Origin: an uncultured Actinomycetes bacterium
GTDB lineage: Bacteria; Actinomycetota; Thermoleophilia; Gaiellales; Gaiellaceae
Assembly: GCA_963717475.1 (NCBI GenBank)
Contig: OY970337.1
Span: 2,629,653-2,693,652 of the forward strand
Length of the DNA: 64,000 nucleotides
Reading direction: 5' to 3'
Shown: positions 3,081 to 31,746 of the stretch, piece after piece
Numbering within the stretch: the stretch's first letter is position 1
How the letters are laid out: each line of letters starts with the position of its first letter
Program-made: the position numbers and the translations under genes
Notes under the pieces: generated by a model
Databases searched by the model: none
The model's input: the letters and a program-made list of their open reading frames with translations, nothing else
Told to the model about the DNA's origin: nothing

Positions 3081-6000
3081 CTAGGGCGCGCCTAGCTCGG
3101 CGAGGAGCTCACGCACACGCTCGGTCATGACCTCGTTGCCCTTCTGCTCGTAGAGGGCGAGCGCCTGCTCCAGCTGCGATCTCGCATCGTCGGCGCGGCC
3201 GGCCAGCTCGAGAACCTCCGCGAAGCTTGCCCGCACCTGCGCCTGGTGGTTGATCTCGTCGCTGCGGTTGATGATCTCGACCGCCTCACGCGCGAGCTCC
3301 TCGGCCGCCGTGAGGTCGCCCCGTCTCGCGAGGACTTTCGCCTGGGTCTCGCGCCAGAAGGCCTGGGCGTTGTAGTCGTCGCTCGTCGCCGTCTCGCGGC
3401 TGCGGCCGGCGGCGGCCTCGGCCTCATCGAGCCGGTCGAGCGCGTAGAGCGCCTGGGCGTGCAGGCCCGACATCGTCGAGAGCCAGCCGCGCTCGCCGGC
3501 GGCGTCGAGCGCGTCGCACGCCTCGCGTAGGTCGTGCTCTGCGGCCGCCGCGTCCCCTGCCAGCAGCTCGAGCGGTCCGGTCCAGAACGCCATCGTGCTC
3601 ACGTCGAGGGGTCTGGCCAGGTTTGCGAGCGAAGCACGTGCCTCCGCCATCAGCTGCCGCGCCTCGTCGAATCTTCCCTGCAGCGCGTAGAAACCGCCGA
3701 GGACCCGCGTCAGCCACCCCTGCATCCAGGTCTGGGTCTCGGTGCTCTCGGCGAGACGCTCGACTCGCGGGAGCGCCGTGGAGACCGGCGTGGGGCCCCA
3801 GAACATGCTGACCGCAAGGAAAACGATCGCGTCCCGCTCGCGCGCGAGGTCCCCCGCACGGCGCGCGTGGTCGAGCGCAGGCTCGAGCGCGCTCGAGACG
3901 CCGTTCCAGACGCCGTGCAGGTTGTTGCCCATCGCGATGAGGTGCCAGGCCGCGGCGAGCGAGGCGTCGTCTCCCAGGGGCTCGAGCTGCGCGACGGCGT
4001 CCTGCCCCAGCTCGATCGCCTGCTCGGCAGTGAACGACGGGTCGGTCACCACGCGGTGGAGGGCGAGCTCGCAACTGGCCCGCAGCTCCGCAGCTGTGTC
4101 GCCGGCTTCACGCGCCACGGCGACCGCCTGCTCGAGCCGCCCGCGCGCCGCCTCCAGGTCGCCGGCGTTGAAGAGCGAGTCGCCGAGGACGATCAGGAGG
4201 TCCACACCGCTCCGTCCCTGCGGCGGGACGAGGGACACCGCTCGCTGAAGGAGCTTCGCCGACGCGCTCACGTCTCCGATCGCCCGCGAGTGGCTGCCCG
4301 CCGCCGCCAGTCTCCGCGCCGCCTGCCGCGCGAGCTCTTCGTCGCGGTCGCCGGTCGCGCCGAGCTCATCGCGATAGCGGTAGGCCTGCTCGAGGTGGTA
4401 GCCGACGATCTCGTCCAGCTCGACGACCTCGGCCCCGTGCTCGTCGAGCCAGCCGGCGAACCGCTCGTGCAGGTCCGCGCGCGTCGCCTTCGGCAGGGCC
4501 TCGTAGGCGGCGTCACGGATCAGCAGGTGGCGAAAGCGGTAGGCGTCCTCGCCCGGGAGCTGCGTCTTGTCGGGCCGCACGAGCTCCTTTCGCACGAGGC
4601 CGTTGAGGCGCGTCTCGACCTGGGTCTCCTCGGGCGCGAGGGCCTGGACGGCGCCGCGGTGGAAGATCCGGCCTTCGACCGAGCCCCGTTCGAGGACGCC
4701 GCGCTCGGCCGGCTCGAGCTGGTCGAGCCTCGCCGCGAGCAGCGCCTGGATCGTTCCCGGCACGGCGATCTCGCCGTCGCCCGAGTCTTCGACGAGCGCG
4801 ACCATCTCCTCGACGAAGAGCGGGTTTCCCTCGGCTGCATCGCGGATCCGCTGCTGGAGATCCGGCTCGAGCGCGGACTCGCCGAGCAGCCGTTCGAGCA
4901 GCTCGTCGGTCTCGGTCGCGCTCAGCGGCTCGAGGAGGATCGTCGTCGCGTTGACCTTGCCGCCGCCCCAGTCCCGGCGCGTGTCCAGGAGCTCCGGCCG
5001 CGCGAGGCAGACGAGTAGCAGCGGCGCATCTCGCGAGAGATCGGCGATGTGCTCGAGGAGGTCGAGCAAGGTCGGCTCCCCCCAGTGGATGTCGTCGACG
5101 ACGGCGACGAGCGGGTTCGACTGCGCATTTGCCTCGAGCAGCTTCCTGGCGGCCCACTGGATCTGCTCGCGGCTGCTGAGGGATTCCTCCTCGCCGAGCA
5201 GCAGCTCGATCGTCGCGACTGCCGCAGGGTCCAGCCCGAGCTCCGCGGCCGGCGGCAGCTGCTTCAGGATCTCGACGAGCGGCCAGTAGGTGATGCCCTC
5301 GCCGTAGGGGAGGCAGCGGCCGCGGACGACGGTTGCCCCGTCAAGCGAGGCGAGCAGCTCGGCCGTGAGGCGCGATTTGCCGACGCCCGCGACGCCGAGG
5401 ATCGTGAACAGCTGGCAGGAGCGGTCGTGGACCGCCTGCGCGAACGCTTCCTGGAGCCTGCGCAGCTCCCGTTCGCGGCCGACGAGGGGAGCGTCGAGGC
5501 GGCGGGTGAAGGCTGGTGCCTCTTGGTGCAGGGCGAGCAGGCGCTGCGCGACGATCGGCTCGCTCTTGCCCTTCAGCTCGAGGGTCACCGGCTCGGTCTC
5601 GACAGCGTCGCGGACGAGCTGCGCAGTCTCGGCGCCGAGCAACACCTCGCCGGCGCCCGCGGCCTGCTCGAGGCGCGCCGCGACGTTGACGGCGTCGCCG
5701 GTGGCGAGGCGCTCGCCGGTGCCCACGACCACCTCGCCCGTGTTGACGCCGATCCGCGCCTGCACGCCGAGCTCGGGGAGGGCGTCGCGCATCTCGACGG
5801 CGGCTCTGACTGCGCGTAGGGCATCGTCCTCGTGCAGCTGGGGCACGCCGAAGACCGCCATGACCGCGTCGCCGATGAACTTCTCGACCGCAGCCGCCGT
5901 GGCGCTCGACGATCGCCTTCATCTGGTCGAAGTAGCGGCCGAGCAGCGCGCGCAGTGCCTCCGGGTCGGTCGACTCGCCGAGGGCCGTCGAACCGACGAC

Positions 6001-6135
6001 GTCGCAGAAGAGGACCGTGACGACCTTGCGGTACTCGCGCGCTGCGGGCTCGGAGGCGGCCAGGTCTGCGCCACACGAGTTGCAGAACCGCGACCCTGCC
6101 GGGTTCTCCTGTCCACAGCTCGCGCAGACGACCAC
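3081..6135 (-). pseudogene. Zinc-ribbon + class III adenylate/guanylate cyclase + AAA/STAND NTPase + TPR signalling protein, split by an apparent +1 frameshift near 5892
   Basis: The N-terminal fragment (ORF ending 6135) reads MVVCASCGQENPAGSRFCNSCG..KVVTVLFCDVVGSTALGE..MKAIVERHGG, then becomes garbage. The downstream frame continues AVEKFIGDAVMAVFGVPQLHEDDALRAV..IGVNTGEVV..GDAVNVAARLE, followed by Walker A GVAGVGKSRL and C-terminal TPR-like repeats. Junction on the coding strand: cac ggc ggc T gcg gtc gag aag. Confidence 0.8.
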
Positions 6136-6179
6136 GCGGAAAGCCTACGGCGAGACGCGACACGTTCATACTGGACGCG

Positions 6180-8337
6180 ATGGGCGTGACGGAGCGCCTA
6201 GCACGCGTGTCGAGCCGCCATCCGTGGCGGGTCATCCTCGGCTGGGTCGCGGCGATCGTGCTCGCGCTCGCCTCGGCGGCCATCCTGCTGCCCGGGAACC
6301 TGACGACGAACGGCCACGTGACGGGGAACCCGCCGTCGAAGCAGGCTGAGGATCTCTTCGGGCAGCGCTTCCCGCCGGACAAGAACGGCGTCGACGAGCT
6401 GATCGTCGTCCACTCCGCGGCCCACACCGCGGGCGATCAGGCGTTCACCTCCTTCCTCGCCGGCCTCCGGGACCAGGCGAACGCGACCGGCGTGGTCTAC
6501 CGGTACCTGCCGCCGGCCGTCTCGCACGACGGGCACACCATCCTGGTCGGCGTCCAGCGAAAGGCGGACGTCGACAAGCTCCTCGCCCTCGTCCAGGGCG
6601 TCGACGGGCAGGACGGCTTCAGCGTCGTGATGACGGGAGAGGGAACGCTCGACCACGACTTCAACGAGCTCTCGCAGCACGACCTGAAGTCGGGCGAGCT
6701 CGAGTTCGGCCTGCCCGCCGCGCTGATCATCCTCGTCCTCGTCTTCGGCGCGGTGGTCGCGGGCCTCGTGCCTCTGGTGATGGCGATCGTCGCGATCATC
6801 GTCGCGCTGGGGCTCTGCGGGCCGATCGCGGCGACGCTGTCGCTCTCGGTCTTCTTCGTGAACATGCTCACGGGGATGGGGCTGGCGCTCGGGATCGACT
6901 ATTCACTCTTCGTCGTCTCGCGCTACCGGGAGGAGCGGGCCGGCGGCCTGCCGCAGCTCGACGCGATCGCCGCGTCCGGCGCGACCGCGAGCCGCGCGGT
7001 GCTGTTCAGCGGCTCGATGTTCGTGATCGCGCTGAGCGGGATGCTGCTCGTGCCGTCCAACGTGATGAAGAGCCTTGCGACCGGCGCGATCGTGGTCGGG
7101 ATCGTCTCGGTGCTCGCGGCGCTCACGCTCCTGCCGGCGCTGCTCGGCGTCCTCGGAGACCGCGTGAACTCGCTTCGGGTTCCGTTCATGGGAAGCGGCG
7201 GCGGGGACAGCCGCTTCTGGGGCGCCGATCGTCCGCTACGTGATGCGCCGGCCGGTCCTGCCGCTGGTCGCGTTCACGGCGCTCCTGGTCGCCGTCGCGG
7301 TGCCGGTCCTCGGCCTCAACCTCGGGGCGAGCGGAGTGAGCACGCTTCCCGACAGGCTCGAGTCGAAGCAGGGCTTCGAGGCGCTCAACCGATACTTCCC
7401 GCAGGCGAGCTCGAGCCCGGCGCTGGTCGCGGTCGAGGGGAACGTGCGCTCGCCCGAAGTGCGCGCTGCGATCGGGCGGCTGCGGAACGAGTTCCGCGGC
7501 GACCCCGTCTTCGGGCGCAGCGACGTGCGTTTCGACAAGACGGGCGGGCTGGCCGCGATCGGAGTTCAGATCGGCGGCGACAAGACCGGGGAGCCCGCGC
7601 TCGACGCGGTTCGGCGTCTGCGATCGACGCTGATCCCGGAGGCGTTCCGTGGGACGGACGCGCAAGTGGTGGTCGGCGGCGACACGGCCGACAACGTCGA
7701 CTTCATCGACGCCATGAACGAGTGGCTGCCGTTCGTGTTCCTGTTCGTGCTGGGCCTGAGCTTCGTGCTGCTGACGATCGTCTTCCGCTCGATCGTGATC
7801 GCCGCGACGTCGATCGTGCTCAACCTGCTCTCGGTGACTGCGGCCTACGGGCTCGTGATCCTCGTCTTCCGGCACGGGGTCGGGAACGGGCTGCTCGGCT
7901 TCCAGCGCGTGCACGCGATCGAGGCCTGGGTGCCGCTGTTTTTGTTCTCGGTGCTGTTCGGGCTGTCGATGGACTACCAGGTGTTCCTGCTCAGCCGGAT
8001 CAAGGAGCGCTACGACCAGACCGGCTCGACCGTCGAGGCGGTCACGCACGGCGTCTCCTCGACCGCGCGCCTGATCACCGGCGCGGCGCTGATCATCGTC
8101 GCGGTCTTCGGCGGCTTCGCGATGGGCGACCTGGTCATGTTCCAGCAGATGGGCTTCGGGGTCGCGATCGCGCTGCTGATCGACGCGACGATCATCCGCT
8201 CGGTGCTCATGCCCGCGGCGATGCGGATCCTGGACCGCTGGAACTGGTACCTGCCGAGCTGGCTCGAGTGGCTGCCGCGCGTCGAGGTCGAGCGCGAGCG
8301 GCCGGAGGGCGTCGCGGTCCCGAGCGCCGGTTCCTGA
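6180..8337 (+). pseudogene. MMPL/RND-superfamily membrane transporter, split by an apparent +1 frameshift near 7227
   Basis: The 6180 frame gives ..GMGLALGIDYSLFVVSRYREE..LLPALLGVLGDRVNSLRVPFMGSGGGDSRFWGA, then Arg/Pro garbage. The frame of 7240 continues IVRYVMRRPVLPLVAF..FGLSMDYQVFLLSRIKERY..LMPAAMRILDRWNWYLP. These are the two repeated MMPL halves. Junction: ggc gcc G atc gtc cgc tac. Confidence 0.8.
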
Positions 8338-21569: not shown

Positions 21570-21642
21570 GCCGACGTAGCTCAGCTGGTAGAGCACTTCA
21601 CTCGTAATGAAGGGGTCCCCGGTTCGAGTCCGGGCGTCGGCT
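21570..21642 (+). tRNA. tRNA-Thr (anticodon CGU)
   Basis: GCCGACG acceptor stem pairs with CGTCGGC; D-arm TAGCTCAGCTGGTAGAGCA; anticodon stem CTTCA/TGAAG with loop CTCGTAA; T-arm CCCGGTTCGAGTCCGGG; discriminator T. No encoded CCA. Confidence 0.9.
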
Positions 21643-21729
21643 CTCCGGGATTTGCAGGCTCTCAACGCCCTCGCGGTGCTGGTCAGAGCCGGGGAGCTGA
21701 CCGATGGCCGGAGTTGCCCGAGCGCGTCG

Positions 21730-26010: not shown

Positions 26011-26271
26011 TTAGTTGTCCGGGTCGACTTGCGCCGCCTGGGCCGCCGCCCTGTCGGCTTCCTTGCGCTCGACGGCCGCGCGGTCGGCGAGCTCCTGCGC
26101 CTGCACCTCGCGCTCCTTCGCGCTGCGGTGCCGCTCCGTCGCCTCCTGGCGGAGCTCCTGCGCCTGCTCGCGCTGCCGGCGCTTCTGTCGTGCCTGGCGG
26201 CTGCCGAGCACGATGACCGCGAGCACGACGACGGCTGCGATTGCGATCACGATCCAGATCCAAGTGGACAT
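26011..26271 (-). CDS. 86-aa membrane-anchored charged helical protein
   Basis: ATG 26271 with SD GAAGGAGAG. MSTWIWIVIAIAAVVVLAVIVLG followed by the K/R/E/Q-rich helix RQKRRQREQAQELRQEATERHRSAKEREVQAQEL... Confidence 0.55.
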   Translation of the reverse strand: MSTWIWIVIAIAAVVVLAVIVLGSRQARQKRRQREQAQELRQEATERHRSAKEREVQAQELADRAAVERKEADRAAAQAAQVDPDN

Positions 26272-26382: not shown

Positions 26383-26976
26383 ATGCTTGCGCCTGGAGAG
26401 AGCGCGAGGGGGAGTTGCGTGTCGATTTTGGTGTTGACGCTTCGGTTCGCGGTGGCGACCGTGCTTGCGGTGGCCGCGAATGCGAAGGCTCGGGACTTCG
26501 AAACCTTCCAGAGGACGGTACGGGCGCTCGTGCCTCGAGGCGCCGGTCTCGTTTCGGCGGGGGTGATCGCGATCGAAGGCGCGCTCGCAGCGCTGCTGGT
26601 CTCGGGCCTCGCTCCCAGCGCCGTCGCGGCGGCGACCGTCGTCCTCTTCCTCGGCTTCTCCGCGCTTTCCGTCTGGGCCATGCGCAGCGGCGTGCACGTC
26701 AGCTGCAACTGCTTCGGCTCGAGCGACCGCGAGCTCGGTAGGGACAGCCTCGAGACATCGCTGCTGCTCGCGGCCGCCTCGCTCGCCTACCTGGCGCTGC
26801 TCCAGCGGACGCAGCCGTCACTGACCCTCGGCGAGGCGCCGCTCGCGGCGTTGCTGGGAGTCACCGCGGTCATGGGCGCGCGCTGGCTGCTCGCCCTTCG
26901 CGACCTGGTTCCGATCGTCCGCCAGCGCCGGTCGCTCGATCGCGAGCTCGCCGAGCCGGCGCGGAGCGCATCGTGA
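26383..26976 (+). CDS. MauE/DoxX-family redox-associated membrane protein
   Basis: The 3' part of GC-artefact ORF 24766..26976 reads ..ILVLTLRFAVATVLAVAANAKARDFETFQRTVRAL..VIAIEGALAALLV..VVLFLGFSALSVWAMRSGVHVSCNCFGS.. It has 4 TM helices and the CxCFG motif typical of MauE. Start is ATG 26383 or GTG ~26419. Confidence 0.65.
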   Translation: MLAPGESARGSCVSILVLTLRFAVATVLAVAANAKARDFETFQRTVRALVPRGAGLVSAGVIAIEGALAALLVSGLAPSAVAAATVVLFLGFSALSVWAMRSGVHVSCNCFGSSDRELGRDSLETSLLLAAASLAYLALLQRTQPSLTLGEAPLAALLGVTAVMGARWLLALRDLVPIVRQRRSLDRELAEPARSAS

Positions 26977-27566
26977 CCGTCCTGATCGTCGCCTGCCTCG
27001 TCGCGCTGGCGGTGATCGTCGTCGTCCAGGGGCTCGTGCTGCTCGAGATGGTCCGGCAGACGTCACAGATCAGGCGCGTGCTCGACCTCGACGACCGCCC
27101 CGTCCCGATCAGCCTCGGCGATCTTGCCGGCCGGCCCCTGCCGGAGCCCGCTCGCAGCATCTGGCCCGAGAACGCCGACGGCGTCTTCGTCTTGCTGAGC
27201 ACGGACTGCGCCACGTGCAGGCTCGTCGCGGCCGGCCTGCGGGACCTACTCGACCGGTTTGTCGACAAGAGGATCGTCACGGTGCTCCAGGCGTACCACG
27301 AGGAGGAGGCGGCGGAGCTGGTGGCCGCTTCCGGCCTGGCCGGCGACGAGGTCGTGATCGATCTCGACCGGAGCTACGGCGAGGCGTTCGGGATCGCGCT
27401 CCGCCCTGCCGCGGTCGTCGTCCGCGACGGGATCCTCAGCGAAGGCGCGGCCGTCCGGAACGCGCGCCAGCTCCAGCAGCTGCTCGAGGCGCTCGGACCC
27501 TCGAGCGACACAGATCTGTCCGAAGTCCCCCGCGTATCAGCCCTGACCACTGGAGGTGCCAGGTGA
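26973..27566 (+). CDS. Membrane-anchored thioredoxin-fold protein with CxxC (TlpA/MauD-like)
   Basis: 197 aa. N-terminal TM is MTVLIVACLVALAVIVVVQGLVLL. The redox motif is LLSTDCATCRLV, and a cis-Pro-type region is AFGIALRPAAVVV. GTGA start/stop overlap with the MauE-like gene. Confidence 0.65.
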   Translation: MTVLIVACLVALAVIVVVQGLVLLEMVRQTSQIRRVLDLDDRPVPISLGDLAGRPLPEPARSIWPENADGVFVLLSTDCATCRLVAAGLRDLLDRFVDKRIVTVLQAYHEEEAAELVAASGLAGDEVVIDLDRSYGEAFGIALRPAAVVVRDGILSEGAAVRNARQLQQLLEALGPSSDTDLSEVPRVSALTTGGAR

Positions 27567-27961
27567 CGCTCTACGAACGGTTCGAACGAGTAAGCGAGCT
27601 CGACATGACGAAGACGACCCGTGGCCGGCTCCTGGCGCGCGCGGGCAAGGTCTGCGTCGGAATCGCCGCCGGCGCGGCGGGGCTGGCAAGCGTCGGGCAA
27701 GCCCGCGCCCAGGACGGGACGCGGACGGTCGGCTGCTGTGCGCTCGCGTACAACAACGACTGCACGAACTGCTCGGGCCGCGGCTACGACTGCGGGTCCG
27801 GCTGCAACCGGTGGGCCTGGTACTGCGTCGACAGCGCACGTCGGGTCTGGCTCTGCGGCGAGTGCTACACGGGTGGAAGTTGCAGTGGCTGCTCGTGCGG
27901 GCGGATCGCAGTCACCCAGGGCAGCCACGCCGTGCCGCGAATCAAGGGCTGGCGCCAGTGA
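27563..27961 (+). CDS. Secreted Cys/Trp-rich small protein (132-aa precursor; predicted 83-aa mature part with 12 Cys, 4 Trp)
   Basis: GTG 27563 overlaps the upstream stop (GTGA), with GGAGG 6 nt upstream; the alternative start is ATG 27605. Signal-like segment MTKTTRGRLLARAGKVCVGIAAGAAGLASVGQARA|QDG. Mature part: VGCCALAYNNDCTNCSGRGYDCGSGCNRWAWYCVDSARRVWLCGECYTGGSCSGCSCGR... Confidence 0.6.
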   Translation: MTLYERFERVSELDMTKTTRGRLLARAGKVCVGIAAGAAGLASVGQARAQDGTRTVGCCALAYNNDCTNCSGRGYDCGSGCNRWAWYCVDSARRVWLCGECYTGGSCSGCSCGRIAVTQGSHAVPRIKGWRQ

Positions 27962-28032: not shown

Positions 28033-28638
28033 ATGGTGGGGGTCATCGGTCCCCTCGTGCAGGGGAAACGTGAGTTACGAGGCTCGGGCAGGTCGATCGC
28101 GCTCTTCACGCTGGGCGCGATGACCGGCGCTGCGCTCACCGGCGTGGTGATCGGCGTGCTCGCCGGCGCCGTGCGCCTCGCGTGGGACGTGCCGGCGCTC
28201 GCCGTCGGAGCGGCCGGCTGCCTCCTGCTGCTCGCGGATCTCGGCCTCTTCGGCCTGCGCACGCCCACGCTTCTCCGGCAGACCTGCTCGACCTGGTACC
28301 GGGAAGAAGGCAGGCAGTCCGTCTGGGCGCTCTGGGGCTTCGATCTCGGACTCGGCTTCTCGACGATCCGGCTGAGCTCGCTCTACTGGCTGATGGTGCT
28401 GTTCGTCGCGGCGTTCGTCTCGCCGTGGCTCGCTCCGGTCGTCCTTGCCTGCTACGGGCTCGGGCTCGGCGTCGCCTTCGGAGCCGCGCTGGTCGCCCAG
28501 GCTCGGAGCACGCCGAAGCCGGGCGCCTCGCCGGGGCTCGGGTTGCTCCACGCGGCGAGCCGGGTCAGGCTCGCGTCGGTCGCGTTCCTCGGAGTCGTCT
28601 CGATCGCGATCGTCATCAGCGGGGCGTCGTGGTTCTAG
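28033..28638 (+). CDS. Polytopic (about 6 TM) membrane protein with two intramembrane Cys; possible CcdA/DsbD_2-like thiol-disulfide transporter
   Basis: 201 aa with helices ..ALFTLGAMTGAALTGVVIGVLAG.., ..VGAAGCLLLLADLGLFG.., ..LYWLMVLFVAAFV.., ..VVLACYGLGLGVAFGAAL.. Family assignment is only by general resemblance. Confidence 0.45.
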   Translation: MVGVIGPLVQGKRELRGSGRSIALFTLGAMTGAALTGVVIGVLAGAVRLAWDVPALAVGAAGCLLLLADLGLFGLRTPTLLRQTCSTWYREEGRQSVWALWGFDLGLGFSTIRLSSLYWLMVLFVAAFVSPWLAPVVLACYGLGLGVAFGAALVAQARSTPKPGASPGLGLLHAASRVRLASVAFLGVVSIAIVISGASWF

Positions 28639-29051
28639 ACAACGGAGCCGCTCCGGCGCTCTCGCCCGACGACCCGATCTGCGTCGTCACCAGGATCACG
28701 TTCGGCCGCTGGCGGTCGATCCCCGGCGCCCTGCTCACCTTCCGGCGGCTGCGGCGAGTCGGGCGGCGCGAGGTCCCGGGCCTGGTCGACGCGCACTTCC
28801 GCGTCTGCAAGGGCGCGACGCTGATGTTCTTCTCCGTCTGGAAGGACGAGCTCTCCCTCTTGCAGTTCACGACGCTCGAGGCGCACGTGAACGCCGTGCG
28901 CTGGACGATCCGGCACCGCGGGGAGGTCTGGTCCGGGGTCTTCCGGCTCACGGGAACCTCGTCGATGAGCAAGCCCTGGATCGGGAAGGTCCGGCAGTGG
29001 GTGCCCCTGCTTCCGGCCGACCCGACCGGGCCGCCGGCGCGTCTCCGTTGA
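28629..29051 (+). CDS. Small ABM/Dabb-fold-like protein (DUF3291/DUF4188-like)
   Basis: GTG 28629 overlaps the upstream gene by 10 nt. ..VVTRITFGRWRSIPGALLTFRRLRRVGRREVPGLVDAHFRV..LMFFSVWKDELSLLQFTTLEAHVNAVRW.. resembles monooxygenase-like DUF4188/DUF3291 proteins. Low certainty. Confidence 0.4.
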   Translation: MVLDNGAAPALSPDDPICVVTRITFGRWRSIPGALLTFRRLRRVGRREVPGLVDAHFRVCKGATLMFFSVWKDELSLLQFTTLEAHVNAVRWTIRHRGEVWSGVFRLTGTSSMSKPWIGKVRQWVPLLPADPTGPPARLR

Positions 29052-30532
29052 GCGCGGACTCTGCTCTCGCGAACCTGCGGCAGATCGACCACATCGTCGT
29101 CCTGATGATGGAGAACCGGTCGTTCGACCACATGCTCGGGTACCTGAAGCGCGACGGCCTGCCGGACGTGAACGGGCTGGACGGCGACGAGTGGAACGAG
29201 GACGACCGCGGGAAGCGGATCACGGTCTTTCCGTTCAGGCCCGACCAGACCGCGTTCCACCGGCCGGGGCAGCCGTTCGACGAGAGCCTCGACCCCCAGC
29301 ACGGGCCGTCATCGGTCGCCGAGCAGCTCGCAGACGGCAACGGCGGGTTCGTCAAGAACTTCATCCGCGAGAAGAGCCCGCCCGAGGAGTGGCGCTCGCT
29401 GCCGATGGGCCACTACACGGCCGAGCACCTCCCGGTCTACGACTTCCTCGCGCGCACGTACTGCGTGTGCGACGCCTGGCACAGCTCGATCCCCGGCGAC
29501 ACCTGGCCGAACCGCCTCTACTCGATCGCGGCACGGGCGGCCGATCCCGTCGGACGCAAGCTGAGGGTGTTCGAGCGCCTCGCCCGTCTCTTCCGCGGCG
29601 AGGGGCTGCTGCAGAAGCTCGAGAAGGAGCCGATCTACGCCGTCGAGGCGTTCACCCGGCACCTCGCGGACGACGACTGGCGCTGGTACTCGTACGACCC
29701 GGCGACGCTGCGCCTGGCGGACCGGCGTTACCGCGACTTCCGTCAGATCGGCGGCAAGAACTTCGCCTACTTCGACCGGAAGGCGATCCCGCGCGCGGAG
29801 CGAGCCCTGAAGGAGCTCGTCGAGCTGCGCGACAGCTTCCTCGACGACGCCGTCAAGAGCGGGTCGCACGGCCTGCGCGCCGTCTCCTGGATCGACCCGA
29901 ACTTCATCGACCACCGCGTCTTCGAGTCGACCTCGAACGACGACCATCCGCCGTCCGACATCCTCGCCGGACAGGAGCTCGTGCTCGAGCTCTACCACGC
30001 GCTCGTCAACAGCCCGAACTGGGAGAACACGCTGCTCGTCATCACCTACGACGAGCACGGCGGCTTCTACGACCACGTTGTGCCGCCCGCGGTCCCGGCC
30101 GGCGACCCGAGCCCCTTCCCGACCTTCGGCGTGCGCGTGCCGGCGCTGGTCGTCGGGCCGCGGGTGCGCAACTTCGTGTGCCACGACTTCTTCGACCACA
30201 CGTCGCTGATGAAGACGATCCTGCTCCGCTTCGCGCGTGACCCGCAGCAGGCGATCCGGAAGATGGGGCCGCGGGTCGAGCGGGCGCAGCATCTGGGCGC
30301 CGCGCTCGCCGATGTGCCGCGGGCCGACCTTCCTGACCACCGCGGGCTCTTCGATCGCTTCGAGGAGTGGCGCAAGGTCGCGCGGGCCGAGCGGCGCGCG
30401 GTCCAGCGCGGGGAAGCGTCCCCGGATCCCGACGGCGCCGGGCGGAACTGGGAGCCCACGGAGCTCCAGCGGGACCTCATCCGCGCCGCGGCCGCGCTGC
30501 GGAAGGAGGGCCTCCCGCCCGGGACGCCCTGA
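29048..30532 (+). CDS. Phosphoesterase family protein (phospholipase C / AcpA acid phosphatase family, PF04185-like)
   Basis: TTG 29048 (TTGA overlap with the upstream stop). ..IDHIVVLMMENRSFDHMLGYL..DPQHG..GDTWPNRLY..VITYDEHGGFYDHVVPP..FGVRVPALVVGP.. are canonical phosphoesterase motifs. No obvious signal peptide. Confidence 0.8.
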   Translation: MSADSALANLRQIDHIVVLMMENRSFDHMLGYLKRDGLPDVNGLDGDEWNEDDRGKRITVFPFRPDQTAFHRPGQPFDESLDPQHGPSSVAEQLADGNGGFVKNFIREKSPPEEWRSLPMGHYTAEHLPVYDFLARTYCVCDAWHSSIPGDTWPNRLYSIAARAADPVGRKLRVFERLARLFRGEGLLQKLEKEPIYAVEAFTRHLADDDWRWYSYDPATLRLADRRYRDFRQIGGKNFAYFDRKAIPRAERALKELVELRDSFLDDAVKSGSHGLRAVSWIDPNFIDHRVFESTSNDDHPPSDILAGQELVLELYHALVNSPNWENTLLVITYDEHGGFYDHVVPPAVPAGDPSPFPTFGVRVPALVVGPRVRNFVCHDFFDHTSLMKTILLRFARDPQQAIRKMGPRVERAQHLGAALADVPRADLPDHRGLFDRFEEWRKVARAERRAVQRGEASPDPDGAGRNWEPTELQRDLIRAAAALRKEGLPPGTP

Positions 30533-30744: not shown

Positions 30745-31746
30745 GTGCTCTGGCCGTCGCAGTACCGCCGCATCGCCGCGATCAAGCGCCGCAGCCCGGG
30801 CGCGAAGGTGCTCGTCTACAAGGACATGGCCTCGACGCGCGACGACGCGCACGGGGCGCGGGACCTGCCGACCGGCGTCGGCTACTCCTACGCGAACCGC
30901 CGCCACCCCGAGTGGTTTCTCCGCGACACGCAGGGCCACCGCGTGAACTGGGCCGACTGGCCGCACTACTGGCAGATGGACGTCGGCAACCGCGCGTACC
31001 AGCGCGCGTGGACCCGGGGCGTCGCGCGCGACCTGCGCCGCCGCGCCTGGGACGGCGTCTTCGTCGACGGGATCTCGCGGACGATGCAGTACCCGTGGTA
31101 CCTGAACGGCCGGGTGCTCGCGAAGTACCCGGGGCCGAACGACTACGCGCGGGCGACGACGCGGTTCCTGCGCCGGGTCGCGCCGGCGCTGCGGCGGCGA
31201 CACCTCGTCGTCGGGAACGTGAACGACGCGACGCCGCGGCTCTGGCGCCGCTGGGTCGGGTACATGTCCGGCGCGGCGAAGGAGTGGTGGACGAAGGCGA
31301 GCGCCGCCGGCGGCAGCGGATTCCTCACCGGAAACGACTGGGCGTACCAGATGAGCCTCCTCCGCGAGGCGCAGGCCCGCCACAAGATCTTCCTCGCGTT
31401 CACCTACGGTCCGCCCGACGACGCTCGCGCGATGGACTACGCGCGGGCGAGCTTCCTGCTCTTCGCCAAGGGGAGCAGGAGCGCGTTCGGCTACGCGCCG
31501 CCGTGCGGGAGTGAGCCGCCGTCGCCCCTCTGGCGCGCGGACGTCGGCGCGCCGGCCGGGCCGGCCTCGCAGGTCGGCGGAGCCTGGCGGCGGGACTTCA
31601 GCGGCGGCGTCGCGGTCGTCAATCCGTCCGCCTCGGCGACCGTGACGCTTCCGCTCGGCGGCTCTTATCTCGACCCGAGCGGGTCGGTCGTGACGTCCGT
31701 GCTGCTGCCGCCTCACACCGGCCTGACGCTGCGCCGCGCTTCTTAG
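30745..31746 (+). CDS. Putative glycoside hydrolase, GHL15-like; true start probably upstream (signal peptide in frame from ~30565)
   Basis: YVVLWPSQYRRIAAIKRRSPGAKVLVYKDM..HPEWFLRDTQGHRVNW..YWQMDVGNRAYQRAW..WDGVFVDG resembles the hypothetical glycosyl hydrolase family 15 pattern. In-frame upstream codons encode RTRRLRFAVAGLLIAAFAAFPASA, but they are preceded by GTG(30559)-TAG(30562). Confidence 0.6.
   Translation: MLWPSQYRRIAAIKRRSPGAKVLVYKDMASTRDDAHGARDLPTGVGYSYANRRHPEWFLRDTQGHRVNWADWPHYWQMDVGNRAYQRAWTRGVARDLRRRAWDGVFVDGISRTMQYPWYLNGRVLAKYPGPNDYARATTRFLRRVAPALRRRHLVVGNVNDATPRLWRRWVGYMSGAAKEWWTKASAAGGSGFLTGNDWAYQMSLLREAQARHKIFLAFTYGPPDDARAMDYARASFLLFAKGSRSAFGYAPPCGSEPPSPLWRADVGAPAGPASQVGGAWRRDFSGGVAVVNPSASATVTLPLGGSYLDPSGSVVTSVLLPPHTGLTLRRAS

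Follow-up and report, generated by a model that had tools for sequence, protein, structure and literature searches.

The small subunits of methylamine dehydrogenase (MADH) and aromatic amine dehydrogenase (AADH), MauA and AauA (PF02975), carry the cofactor tryptophan tryptophylquinone (TTQ). The light subunit of MADH has a twin-arginine (RR) leader and six disulfides; we take its quinone to be carried by βTrp57, with βTrp108 as the cross-link partner and βAsp76 as the active-site base, in a residue numbering that agrees with the MauA sequence recovered in this work. The gene mauF is required for MADH maturation. The genes mauE and mauD are likewise required for it in Paracoccus denitrificans, as cited in bioRxiv 10.64898/2026.03.05.709764 and PMC7794033. 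The former, a preprint, reports that other MauE proteins complement E. coli ΔdsbB, replacing DsbB, that their CXC motif is the active site, CXC mutants being dead, and that MauE is present in 6,470 species, of which 10.2% contain MauA, and proposes a generalist role (bioRxiv 10.64898/2026.03.05.709764). Here a stretch of 64,000 nucleotides (the window) from an uncultured Actinomycetes bacterium of the family Gaiellaceae (contig OY970337.1, positions 2,629,653 to 2,693,652 of the forward strand) is described, in which a gene for a secreted cysteine-rich protein lies among genes of MauE, MauD-like and MauF-like proteins. This cassette is a stripped-down maturation operon for the small subunit of MADH, without the large subunit and MauG at the locus, and the Cys-rich protein is probably related, distantly and in a way not recognised before, to MauA, the subunit that bears the quinone. 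The preferred reading, in which a dedicated MauE/D/F cassette for oxidative folding acts on a diverged and truncated MauA-like substrate, is given a probability of about 0.6.

The cassette and its Cys-rich gene are composed of the following features:

26383–26976, forward strand: MauE-family membrane protein, 197 aa (PF07291, E 4e-19), with CNCFG at 26704–26718.
26973–27566, forward strand: MauD-like thioredoxin-fold protein, 197 aa, anchored in the membrane at its N-terminus, with C-A-T-C at 27207–27218.
27552–27556, forward strand: Shine–Dalgarno sequence GGAGG, 6 nt before the GTG start, read from the sequence.
27563 (GTG) to 27959–27961 (TGA), forward strand: Cys-rich open reading frame (ORF) for a 132-aa precursor, read from the sequence.
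27563–27709, forward strand: leader peptide, 49 aa, with the N-terminal extension MTLYERFERVSELD, TRGRLL (27617–27634), h-region and ARA cleavage site.
27710–27961, forward strand: mature 83-aa Cys-rich domain with 12 Cys (Q50–Q132; nt 27710–27958) plus stop codon.
28033–28638, forward strand: MauF-like protein of 201 aa, a polytopic membrane protein; motif WGxDLGLGFSTIRLSSLYW at 28333–28389.
28629–29051, forward strand: probable ABM-superfamily (dimeric alpha+beta barrel) protein, about 140 aa, without signal peptide, conserved and assigned by Pfam matches of homologues.

Start and stop codons overlap at the junctions of the MauE and thioredoxin-like, the thioredoxin-like and Cys-rich, and the membrane-protein and ABM-like genes. 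The GTG start of the MauD-like gene overlaps the stop codon of mauE, the GTG of the Cys-rich gene overlaps the TGA of the gene upstream (GTGA), and a gap of 71 nt follows the Cys-rich gene; a promoter and terminator scan of the operon gave nothing above background. The Cys-rich gene directly follows mauE and mauD, in the E-D-A order of mauFBEDA, and a mauF-like gene is present in the cassette as well. Its product resembles MauA and AauA in being small and exported, with an extended leader of the RR type and 12 Cys including a CC doublet, whereas its mature domain of about 83 aa, against about 131 aa in MauA, lacks the C-terminal part with Trp108, Tyr119 and Thr122. MADH and AADH also differ in matching PF02975, in having the large subunit MauB, MauG and an amicyanin or cytochrome partner, and in being proteobacterial, whereas the locus described here belongs to Gaiellales. 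With regard to the mau accessory genes of P. denitrificans (mauFBEDA… cluster, L011, recovered from the plasmid collection as the comparison set), MauE with CxCFG, MauD with its transmembrane (TM) anchor and CxxC, and the central part of MauF are kept, the ABM-like protein comes in addition, and the cassette has no MauJ, MauG, MauM or MauN.

The Cys-rich ORF belongs to a real, conserved gene family. Among 5.8 billion proteins, a word-indexed search recovered 64 close homologues with E from 1e-15 to 1e-71 and 53–93% identity to the window protein, all labelled ‘hypothetical protein’ or nameless, from metagenome-assembled genomes (MAGs) of Gaiellaceae or uncultured Actinomycetes and from metagenomes. 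When GTDB was scanned with a single genome for each species, the gene was found in 10 genomes, all MAGs of Gaiellaceae or ‘uncultured Actinomycetes’. A complete scan with HMMER of 1.84 billion cluster representatives extended the family to a superfamily of 88 representatives at E ≤1e-3, most of them 100–135 aa long and matching over leader and Cys-rich domain alike, with an identity to the window protein of about 30% in the distant members. Conservation across the 64 homologues and the superfamily led to rejection of a chance ORF. This family, which comprises 88 clusters defined at 50% identity and has no Pfam or NCBIfam model, is uncurated, and no description of it was found in the literature searched.

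The mature domain contains 12 Cys (14.5% of residues), among them the CC doublet C58-C59, and Trp at positions 84, 86, 96 and 130; spacings of the CxxC type are C67-x2-C70, C98-x2-C101 and C107-x2-C110-x-C112. In the alignment of 27 close homologues, 12 of 12 Cys are conserved (six invariant, six in at least 90%), W84, W86 and W96 never vary, unlike W130, which is not conserved. Across 97 aligned superfamily sequences C59, C77, W86, C98 and C101 are invariant, W86 being the only Trp of the window protein with this property, while C58, L61, C67, C88, E100 and C110 are conserved in at least 90%. The core hairpin R83–Y102 (27809–27868) thus bears the invariant W86, C98 and C101 together with the highly conserved C88 and E100. 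This number of conserved Cys, 12, would allow six disulfides in the mature protein. A second Cys-rich paralogue with 54% identity to the window protein was found directly after the ABM-like gene on a 2.77-Mb MAG contig (L001:11607–11981).

These data bear on an earlier sequence-only reading of the window, which had reported a secreted 83-residue domain with 12 Cys (about 14%), a CC doublet and four Trp, preceded by a leader whose n-region is unusually long if GTG 27563, with GGAGG 6 nt upstream, is the start. The mature sequence proved exact on re-reading, and the existence of homologues with conserved Cys positions makes the secreted domain genuine. The long-leader start at GTG 27563 is the real one because the N-terminal MTLYERFEK.SE.D is kept in the alignment of close homologues, and the suggested AxA site, ARA followed by Q (A47-x-A49), is conserved there in at least 90% of sequences. 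The absence of a named family was borne out: apart from models of the signal for twin-arginine translocation (Tat), neither the protein nor its profiles matched any sequence family in Pfam, NCBIfam or PDB. The neighbouring MauE and thioredoxin genes were likewise recovered next to the Cys-rich gene. A 13th Cys of the precursor, C31 (27653–27655), is located within the h-region of the signal peptide in the context K-x-C-[LV]-G; it is kept across the Gaiellales clade, not in the wider superfamily, and is not part of a lipobox.

The Cys-rich gene travels with genes of MauE, MauD-like and MauF-like proteins. In all 10 genome loci the five cassette genes are found in identical order wherever the locus reaches; at the end of L006 only a short piece of the ABM-like gene is present, and in L010 this gene contains a stop or frameshift. 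Distant loci with enough flanking sequence (L020-22, L023, L024/25, L026, L028 and the P0149 contig) all contain genes of MauE, of an anchored CxxC thioredoxin and of a homologue of the 201-aa protein, in variable gene order, and the short contigs L027 and L029 contain one cassette neighbour each. Hidden Markov model (HMM) matches of the distant thioredoxin-like and membrane-protein homologues range from E 1e-4 to 1e-44; distant MauE homologues score weaker (down to about 1e-2, for the split copy of L024) but have PF07291 matches.

This co-occurrence bears on the view that the MauE, thioredoxin and membrane-protein genes form a general extracytoplasmic oxidative-folding system, in which the Cys-rich ORF is incidental or one of many clients. 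Such a role would agree with the wide distribution of MauE relative to MauA and with the generalist function proposed on that basis (bioRxiv 10.64898/2026.03.05.709764), and the generalist MauE proteins share with the window protein the CXC-F-G motif and a context without recognisable MauA. It is opposed by the finding of the four genes together in every examined locus despite reordered genes and 30% identity, by the overlapping start and stop codons, which couple the MauE/MauD-like/Cys-rich and the MauF-like/ABM-like genes in the window, and by the MauA-type leader described below, which points to a dedicated substrate. A general folding system is regarded as extremely improbable; a ‘MauA-less’ MauE in a dedicated cassette with a cryptic MauA-like substrate argues for a specialist, not a generalist, role at this locus.

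Comparison with the mau proteins of P. denitrificans showed the E, D and F components to be homologous to mau accessory proteins, as judged from profile alignments (hhalign E-values are given per comparison). MauE of the window matches PF07291 with 69.5 bits at a gathering cutoff of 27, its CxCFG motif is invariant in the 10 loci, and the cassette MauE profile aligns to P. denitrificans MauE at 91.5% (hhalign E 8.5e-7). The profile of the thioredoxin-like protein aligns to MauD at 97.2% over 170 columns (E 3.8e-11); its CxxC is invariant across loci and the membrane anchor is present. The window protein alone gave a weak Redoxin match and no match to TIGR02661 (MauD), the sole NCBIfam match of the L024 thioredoxin (E 6e-11, 42 bits against a cutoff of 188.6), which is also matched by P. 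denitrificans MauD in tblastn (E 8e-12). By these scores, the MauD-like protein appears related to MauD and not an equivalog of it.

The profile of the 201-aa membrane protein aligns to P. denitrificans MauF at 94.8% over 146 columns (E 5.3e-8), from profile residues 4–149 to MauF residues 86–231, with the shared motif R-R-x-Q…W…G-L-x-L-G-L, and to MauE, MauD and MauJ at 0.1–0.2% only; all cross-comparisons among cassette profiles and mau proteins remained at or below 0.5%. In tblastn, Paracoccus MauF matched the membrane proteins of L024/L025 (E 7e-8) and the homologue in L023 (E 1.6e-5). The window MauF-like protein has no match in Pfam or NCBIfam, and a weak PF13386 (DsbD_2) match was obtained for its homologue in L023 and for the P0149 neighbour. 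It lacks the N-terminal region of MauF of about 85 aa, including the single Cys of MauF (WSPCGYSS), and contains no invariant Cys, which argues against a role in thiol transfer.

By sequence comparison, the leader belongs to the extended twin-arginine leaders of the MauA type. Judged by a simple pattern, 78 of the 97 superfamily members contain a canonical RR-x-hydrophobic-hydrophobic motif, with the consensus S/T-R-R-x-F-L, and the Tat signal model TIGR01409 matches 10 of 40 members. The motif T-R-G-R-L-L of the window protein, which the sequence-only reading had described as resembling a Tat motif without matching it, corresponds to a degenerate, single-Arg copy of this family-wide RR motif (R-G-R, not RR). 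In leader-only hhalign comparisons with MauA/AauA leaders E-values of 1.6e-8 and 2.3e-8 were obtained. The eight MauA/AauA leaders scored 24.6–38.2, against 12.5–24.0 for 16 manually entered generic Tat leaders, and the two sets were fully separated; five of the eight aligned from the N-terminal extension onwards, whereas generic Tat leaders aligned only around the RR motif. Since MauA leaders outscore all 16 controls, the likeness to MauA is not generic Tat similarity. In both the window family and MauA, a helix of the type hydrophobic-F-[DE]…E lies 12–13 residues ahead of RR.

The leader and the MauF-like gene also bear on a second explanation, in which the product is a secreted disulfide-knot peptide, similar to bacteriocins or to peptides synthesised on ribosomes and modified after translation (RiPPs) and of structural, antimicrobial or signalling function, which recruited the MauE/MauD pair and has neither a cofactor nor MauA ancestry. 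Its precedent comes from Streptomyces, where decRiPPter flagged mauE clusters, one of them with mauD, beside precursors with at least 8 Cys (PMC7794033), an actinobacterial arrangement of mauE/mauD next to a small Cys-rich precursor, as here. The Streptomyces precursors are 57–66 aa long and have no RR leader, unlike the window protein, and kinship of the two was rejected (hmmsearch E 0.03 or worse; hhalign ≤0.6%). A knot peptide would fit the weak likeness of the mature domain to MauA and the missing fold match, both detailed below, the argument that MauE is a generalist oxidase, and the second paralogue in L001, as often seen in bacteriocin loci. It does not fit a leader that is specifically MauA-like, the constant presence of a MauF-like protein, a type whose other known occurrences are all in mau clusters, or the high conservation of the family (53–93% identity, 12 of 12 Cys), unlike that of fast-evolving toxins; nor were genes of a protease, ABC exporter or immunity protein detected in the cassette by Pfam and NCBIfam scans of its proteins. 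A disulfide-knot peptide is considered rather unlikely.

The preferred MauA-like reading requires a relationship of the mature domain in addition to that of the leader. The narrow family profile matched MauA only within the leader (P 6e-5). The superfamily profile (A3) matched an alignment of eight MauA/AauA sequences at 94–95% (E 3e-8 to 9e-8) and an alignment of 130 MauA sequences at 96.6% (E 6e-10), over 91–115 columns. Whole-protein homology as an interpretation of these 94–97% matches was rejected after splitting leader from mature domain, because the split alignments place most of the score in the leader. The mature domain itself matched the 130-sequence MauA profile with a local P of 0.0019 (0.0019–0.0022), a score reached by one of 300 column shuffles, and against a profile of MauA-like paralogues of Thermomicrobium roseum the score was reached by one of 200 and two of 200 column shuffles; these shuffle tests are not mutually independent. 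One and the same segment was aligned in three profile tests, the narrow-family (A2) comparison covering the W86 hairpin portion only. Within it, C77-G-S-G…W86…C88…W96-L97 of the window protein aligns to C46-P-P-G…Trp57…C61…Tyr70-Leu71 of MauA, and global alignments place W86 on Trp57, E100 on Asp76, C101 on Cys77, and C110 and C112 on Cys86 and Cys88. MauA/AauA and the window family share the local motif C-x(1,2)-C-S-G-x4-C-[PG]-[PS]-G…W…C, and in both a beta hairpin comes next. We infer that the mature domain is most probably related to the light chain of MADH/AADH, with strong divergence and a truncated C-terminus.

A further comparison, from outside the proteobacteria, is provided by the plasmid NC_011961.1 of T. 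roseum (locus L019), which contains at least three MauA-like paralogues, two of them unannotated and one listed in RefSeq as methylamine dehydrogenase light chain:

76–264, 717–1169, 5863–6315, 6344–8134 and 8756–9349 of L019: features of the T. roseum MauA-like locus, comprising the paralogues, a MauE fusion and the MauF-like homologue.

The locus carries a homologue of the window MauF-like protein (E 2e-12), which independently ties the MauF-like family to MauA-type substrates. No MauB or MauG match was found in L019, and it looks like a second non-canonical arrangement of ‘MauA without MADH’. The hairpin AWWACCRDSSGRLWL of this locus resembles the window hairpin RWAWYCVDSARRVWL; in the T. 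roseum proteins both DCC and the ‘NWC’ of Trp108 persist, whereas the window family keeps neither and has no PF02975 match. The two fully contained MauA-like copies each precede a gene for a protein of 400–600 aa, one of which is MauE fused to a large N-terminal domain.

A number of results weigh against kinship with MauA. The mature domain compared with the small MauA profile gave P 0.058, which is not significant; pairwise Smith–Waterman alignment with P. denitrificans MauA, evaluated by composition-preserving shuffles, gave z = −0.3, and the best of three T. roseum paralogues in the same kind of test reached p about 0.013, a value that is also counted here. No match to PF02975 or NCBIfam at E ≤1 was obtained for the window protein and 40 superfamily members. 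The Trp108 region of TTQ is missing, since the window family ends before it. Searches by tblastn with MauB, MauG and amicyanin of P. denitrificans in the window and 16 loci gave no match in the window or the cassettes; cupredoxin matches about 8 kb away were obtained in L001 and L003. The R-G-R of the window leader makes Tat export of this copy uncertain, and the similarity of the leaders could stem from recognition by shared accessory machinery and not from common descent of the mature domains. An odd number of mature Cys (9, 11 or 13), counted with a crude cleavage-site rule, was found in 27 of 97 superfamily members, so that the placement of all Cys in disulfides may not hold family-wide; if the odd counts are real, one Cys is free or in a non-disulfide bond. 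Members with odd counts are found especially in the ‘CPSGY…W.CC’ subfamily.

Structure prediction belongs in part to the same side. The AlphaFold2 (AF2) model of the mature domain, built from the alignment of 97 sequences, is all-beta, with a pLDDT of 86.3, a pTM of 0.71 and long strands at mature residues 33–40, 46–53 and 61–68; an earlier model from a narrow alignment with the leader included had a pLDDT of 53 and gave noise in Foldseek. A Foldseek search of the pLDDT 86 model against 350,542 PDB chains gave a best E of 0.96 and did not retrieve the MADH light chain, a null result that is not a strong negative because Foldseek performs poorly on small disulfide-rich domains. The predicted fold is one without a detectable solved relative. 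In the model the hairpin of W86 fits the secondary structure implied by the MauA alignment, and the strand register would put W84, W86, C98 and E100 together on a single face of the hairpin.

The search of PDB with the A3 profile, the last of the points counted against MauA kinship, retrieved only Tat leaders of metalloenzymes at E 1–2 and no MADH light chains, a result that would be expected, despite its weak scores, of a Tat-exported metalloprotein, in which the 12 Cys would acquire Fe–S clusters, Zn or Cu in the cytoplasm prior to export and the neighbouring thiol-redox proteins would keep the sites intact or mend them. Proteins with Tat leaders have usually received a cofactor while still in the cytoplasm, and a Cys content of 14.5% with CxxC-type spacings would also suit metal binding. 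Pfam and NCBIfam searches, however, gave no ferredoxin, high-potential iron–sulfur protein or metallothionein match, the spacing is not of the CxxCxxCxxxCP type, and AF2 arrives at a confident beta-sheet fold without any ligand. MauA itself is an RR-leader protein held by disulfides. A metal-binding Tat substrate is less likely because the partners MauE and MauD are disulfide-forming, not reducing, and no metalloprotein motif is present; this explanation is rated very unlikely, and an Fe–S ferredoxin in particular was rejected on conservation and motif spacing.

The sequence-only reading had left the choice among a redox cofactor carrier, a metal-binding protein and an antimicrobial or structural knot. 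The latter two have less support, and the first is favoured, indirectly, because the leader and three accessory genes are those of MauA and W86 aligns to the TTQ residue Trp57. Under the MauA-like reading the truncated domain would keep the hairpin of the TTQ Trp (W86 as the equivalent of βTrp57) and the acidic E100 at the position of βAsp76, without the Trp108 half, which predicts a functional site at the face formed by W84, W86, C98 and E100. A redox or catalytic site is plausible because the invariant W86 and the highly conserved E100 sit at the positions equivalent to Trp57 and Asp76.

A Trp-derived quinone cofactor in the Cys-rich protein is a possible but speculative feature. In its fullest form this would be a mini-quinoprotein in which W86 is oxygenated, and possibly cross-linked to a nearby Cys or Trp, without MauG or a large subunit and with the ABM-like protein as the hydroxylating component, which we consider distinctly unlikely; to our knowledge, the hydroxylating enzyme of TTQ formation has yet to be identified even for MADH. 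If this were true, the product would be a redox-active protein of 8–9 kDa on the surface of soil Actinobacteria. A known protein of comparable description is QhpC, the gamma subunit of quinohemoprotein amine dehydrogenase (QHNDH), which is Cys-rich, about 80 aa long, and contains the Trp-derived quinone cysteine tryptophylquinone (CTQ) with thioether crosslinks. The likeness to the window protein, compared by description only, is that of a small Cys-rich subunit, whereas no domain of the QHNDH operon proteins, radical-SAM QhpD, protease QhpE and flavoprotein QhpG, is present in the five cassette proteins of the window.

For the disulfide chemistry and export route of the product, the following course may be proposed. 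The 132-aa precursor would be exported through the MauA-type leader and cut after A-R-A, the route being less certain for the R-G-R copy. MauE would generate disulfides at its CxC motif at the membrane's outer face, with a linkage to quinone suggested by analogy with DsbB, and would hand them to the anchored MauD-like C-A-T-C protein, which in turn would convert the substrate's 12 Cys into six disulfides by oxidation. The MauF-like protein, by analogy with MauF and the small subunit of MADH, may be an obligatory helper without redox cysteines. The expected outcome is an 83-residue, all-beta, disulfide-locked mini-protein.

The ABM-like cytoplasmic protein might, speculatively, hydroxylate the substrate (Trp) or bind the leader as a chaperone; the ferredoxin-like fold is also that of Tat chaperones of the NapD type. 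Its gene is restricted to the Gaiellales clade and L024 and is absent from the other distant cassettes. In those of the 10 Gaiellales loci that extend past the MauF-like gene the protein is conserved at 60–93% identity. Its homologues match PF03992 (ABM) in seven of nine cases and PF13826 in six of nine at E ≤0.1; the best match (E 6.6e-5) barely exceeds the gathering score, and the window copy matches Pfam at E about 0.1 only. A search of PDB with its profile gave spurious WD40 matches only and no sequence relative.

While the E, D and F components are of known kinds, the mau-type maturation module with a truncated MauA-like substrate and without a dehydrogenase is a novel form of a known system. 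Some ‘MauA-less’ MauE genes sit in tight cassettes, which qualifies the view of MauE as purely generalist. The cassette offers a minimal, genetically tractable system for the role of MauF, for oxidative maturation of the small subunit and for modification of the Trp57 type without MauG. If a cofactor is present, tryptophylquinone biochemistry would be extended to Actinobacteria and to a standalone 8-kDa protein; if not, the protein would still represent a new disulfide-rich fold without a solved relative.

Several other features were annotated around the cassettes. In the distant locus L020, four genes for proteins of 150–190 aa without a recorded Pfam match, several with hydrophobic N-termini, are located between the Cys-rich gene and mauE (L020:2509–4741), and genes of the selenocysteine machinery, SelA, SelB and SelD, adjoin the cassette. 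In the window, the ABM-like gene is followed by a gene for a phospholipase-C-type phosphoesterase (29048–30532, forward strand; PF04185, E 7.5e-65), whose TTG start overlaps the ABM-like stop codon (TTGA); the phosphoesterase is probably outside the system because L004, the closest relative, is the sole other locus where it comes after the cassette. A tRNA-Thr with the anticodon CGT (21570–21643, forward strand) is the single tRNA or Rfam match in the 64-kb window. Divergently upstream of mauE lies a gene for a protein of 86 aa that combines a single TM helix with a charged, coiled tail (26011–26271, reverse strand), kept in L002, L004 and L008, and a putative glycosyl hydrolase of the GHL15 type (30745–31746, forward strand; PF14885, E 1e-38) is conserved in L002 and L004.

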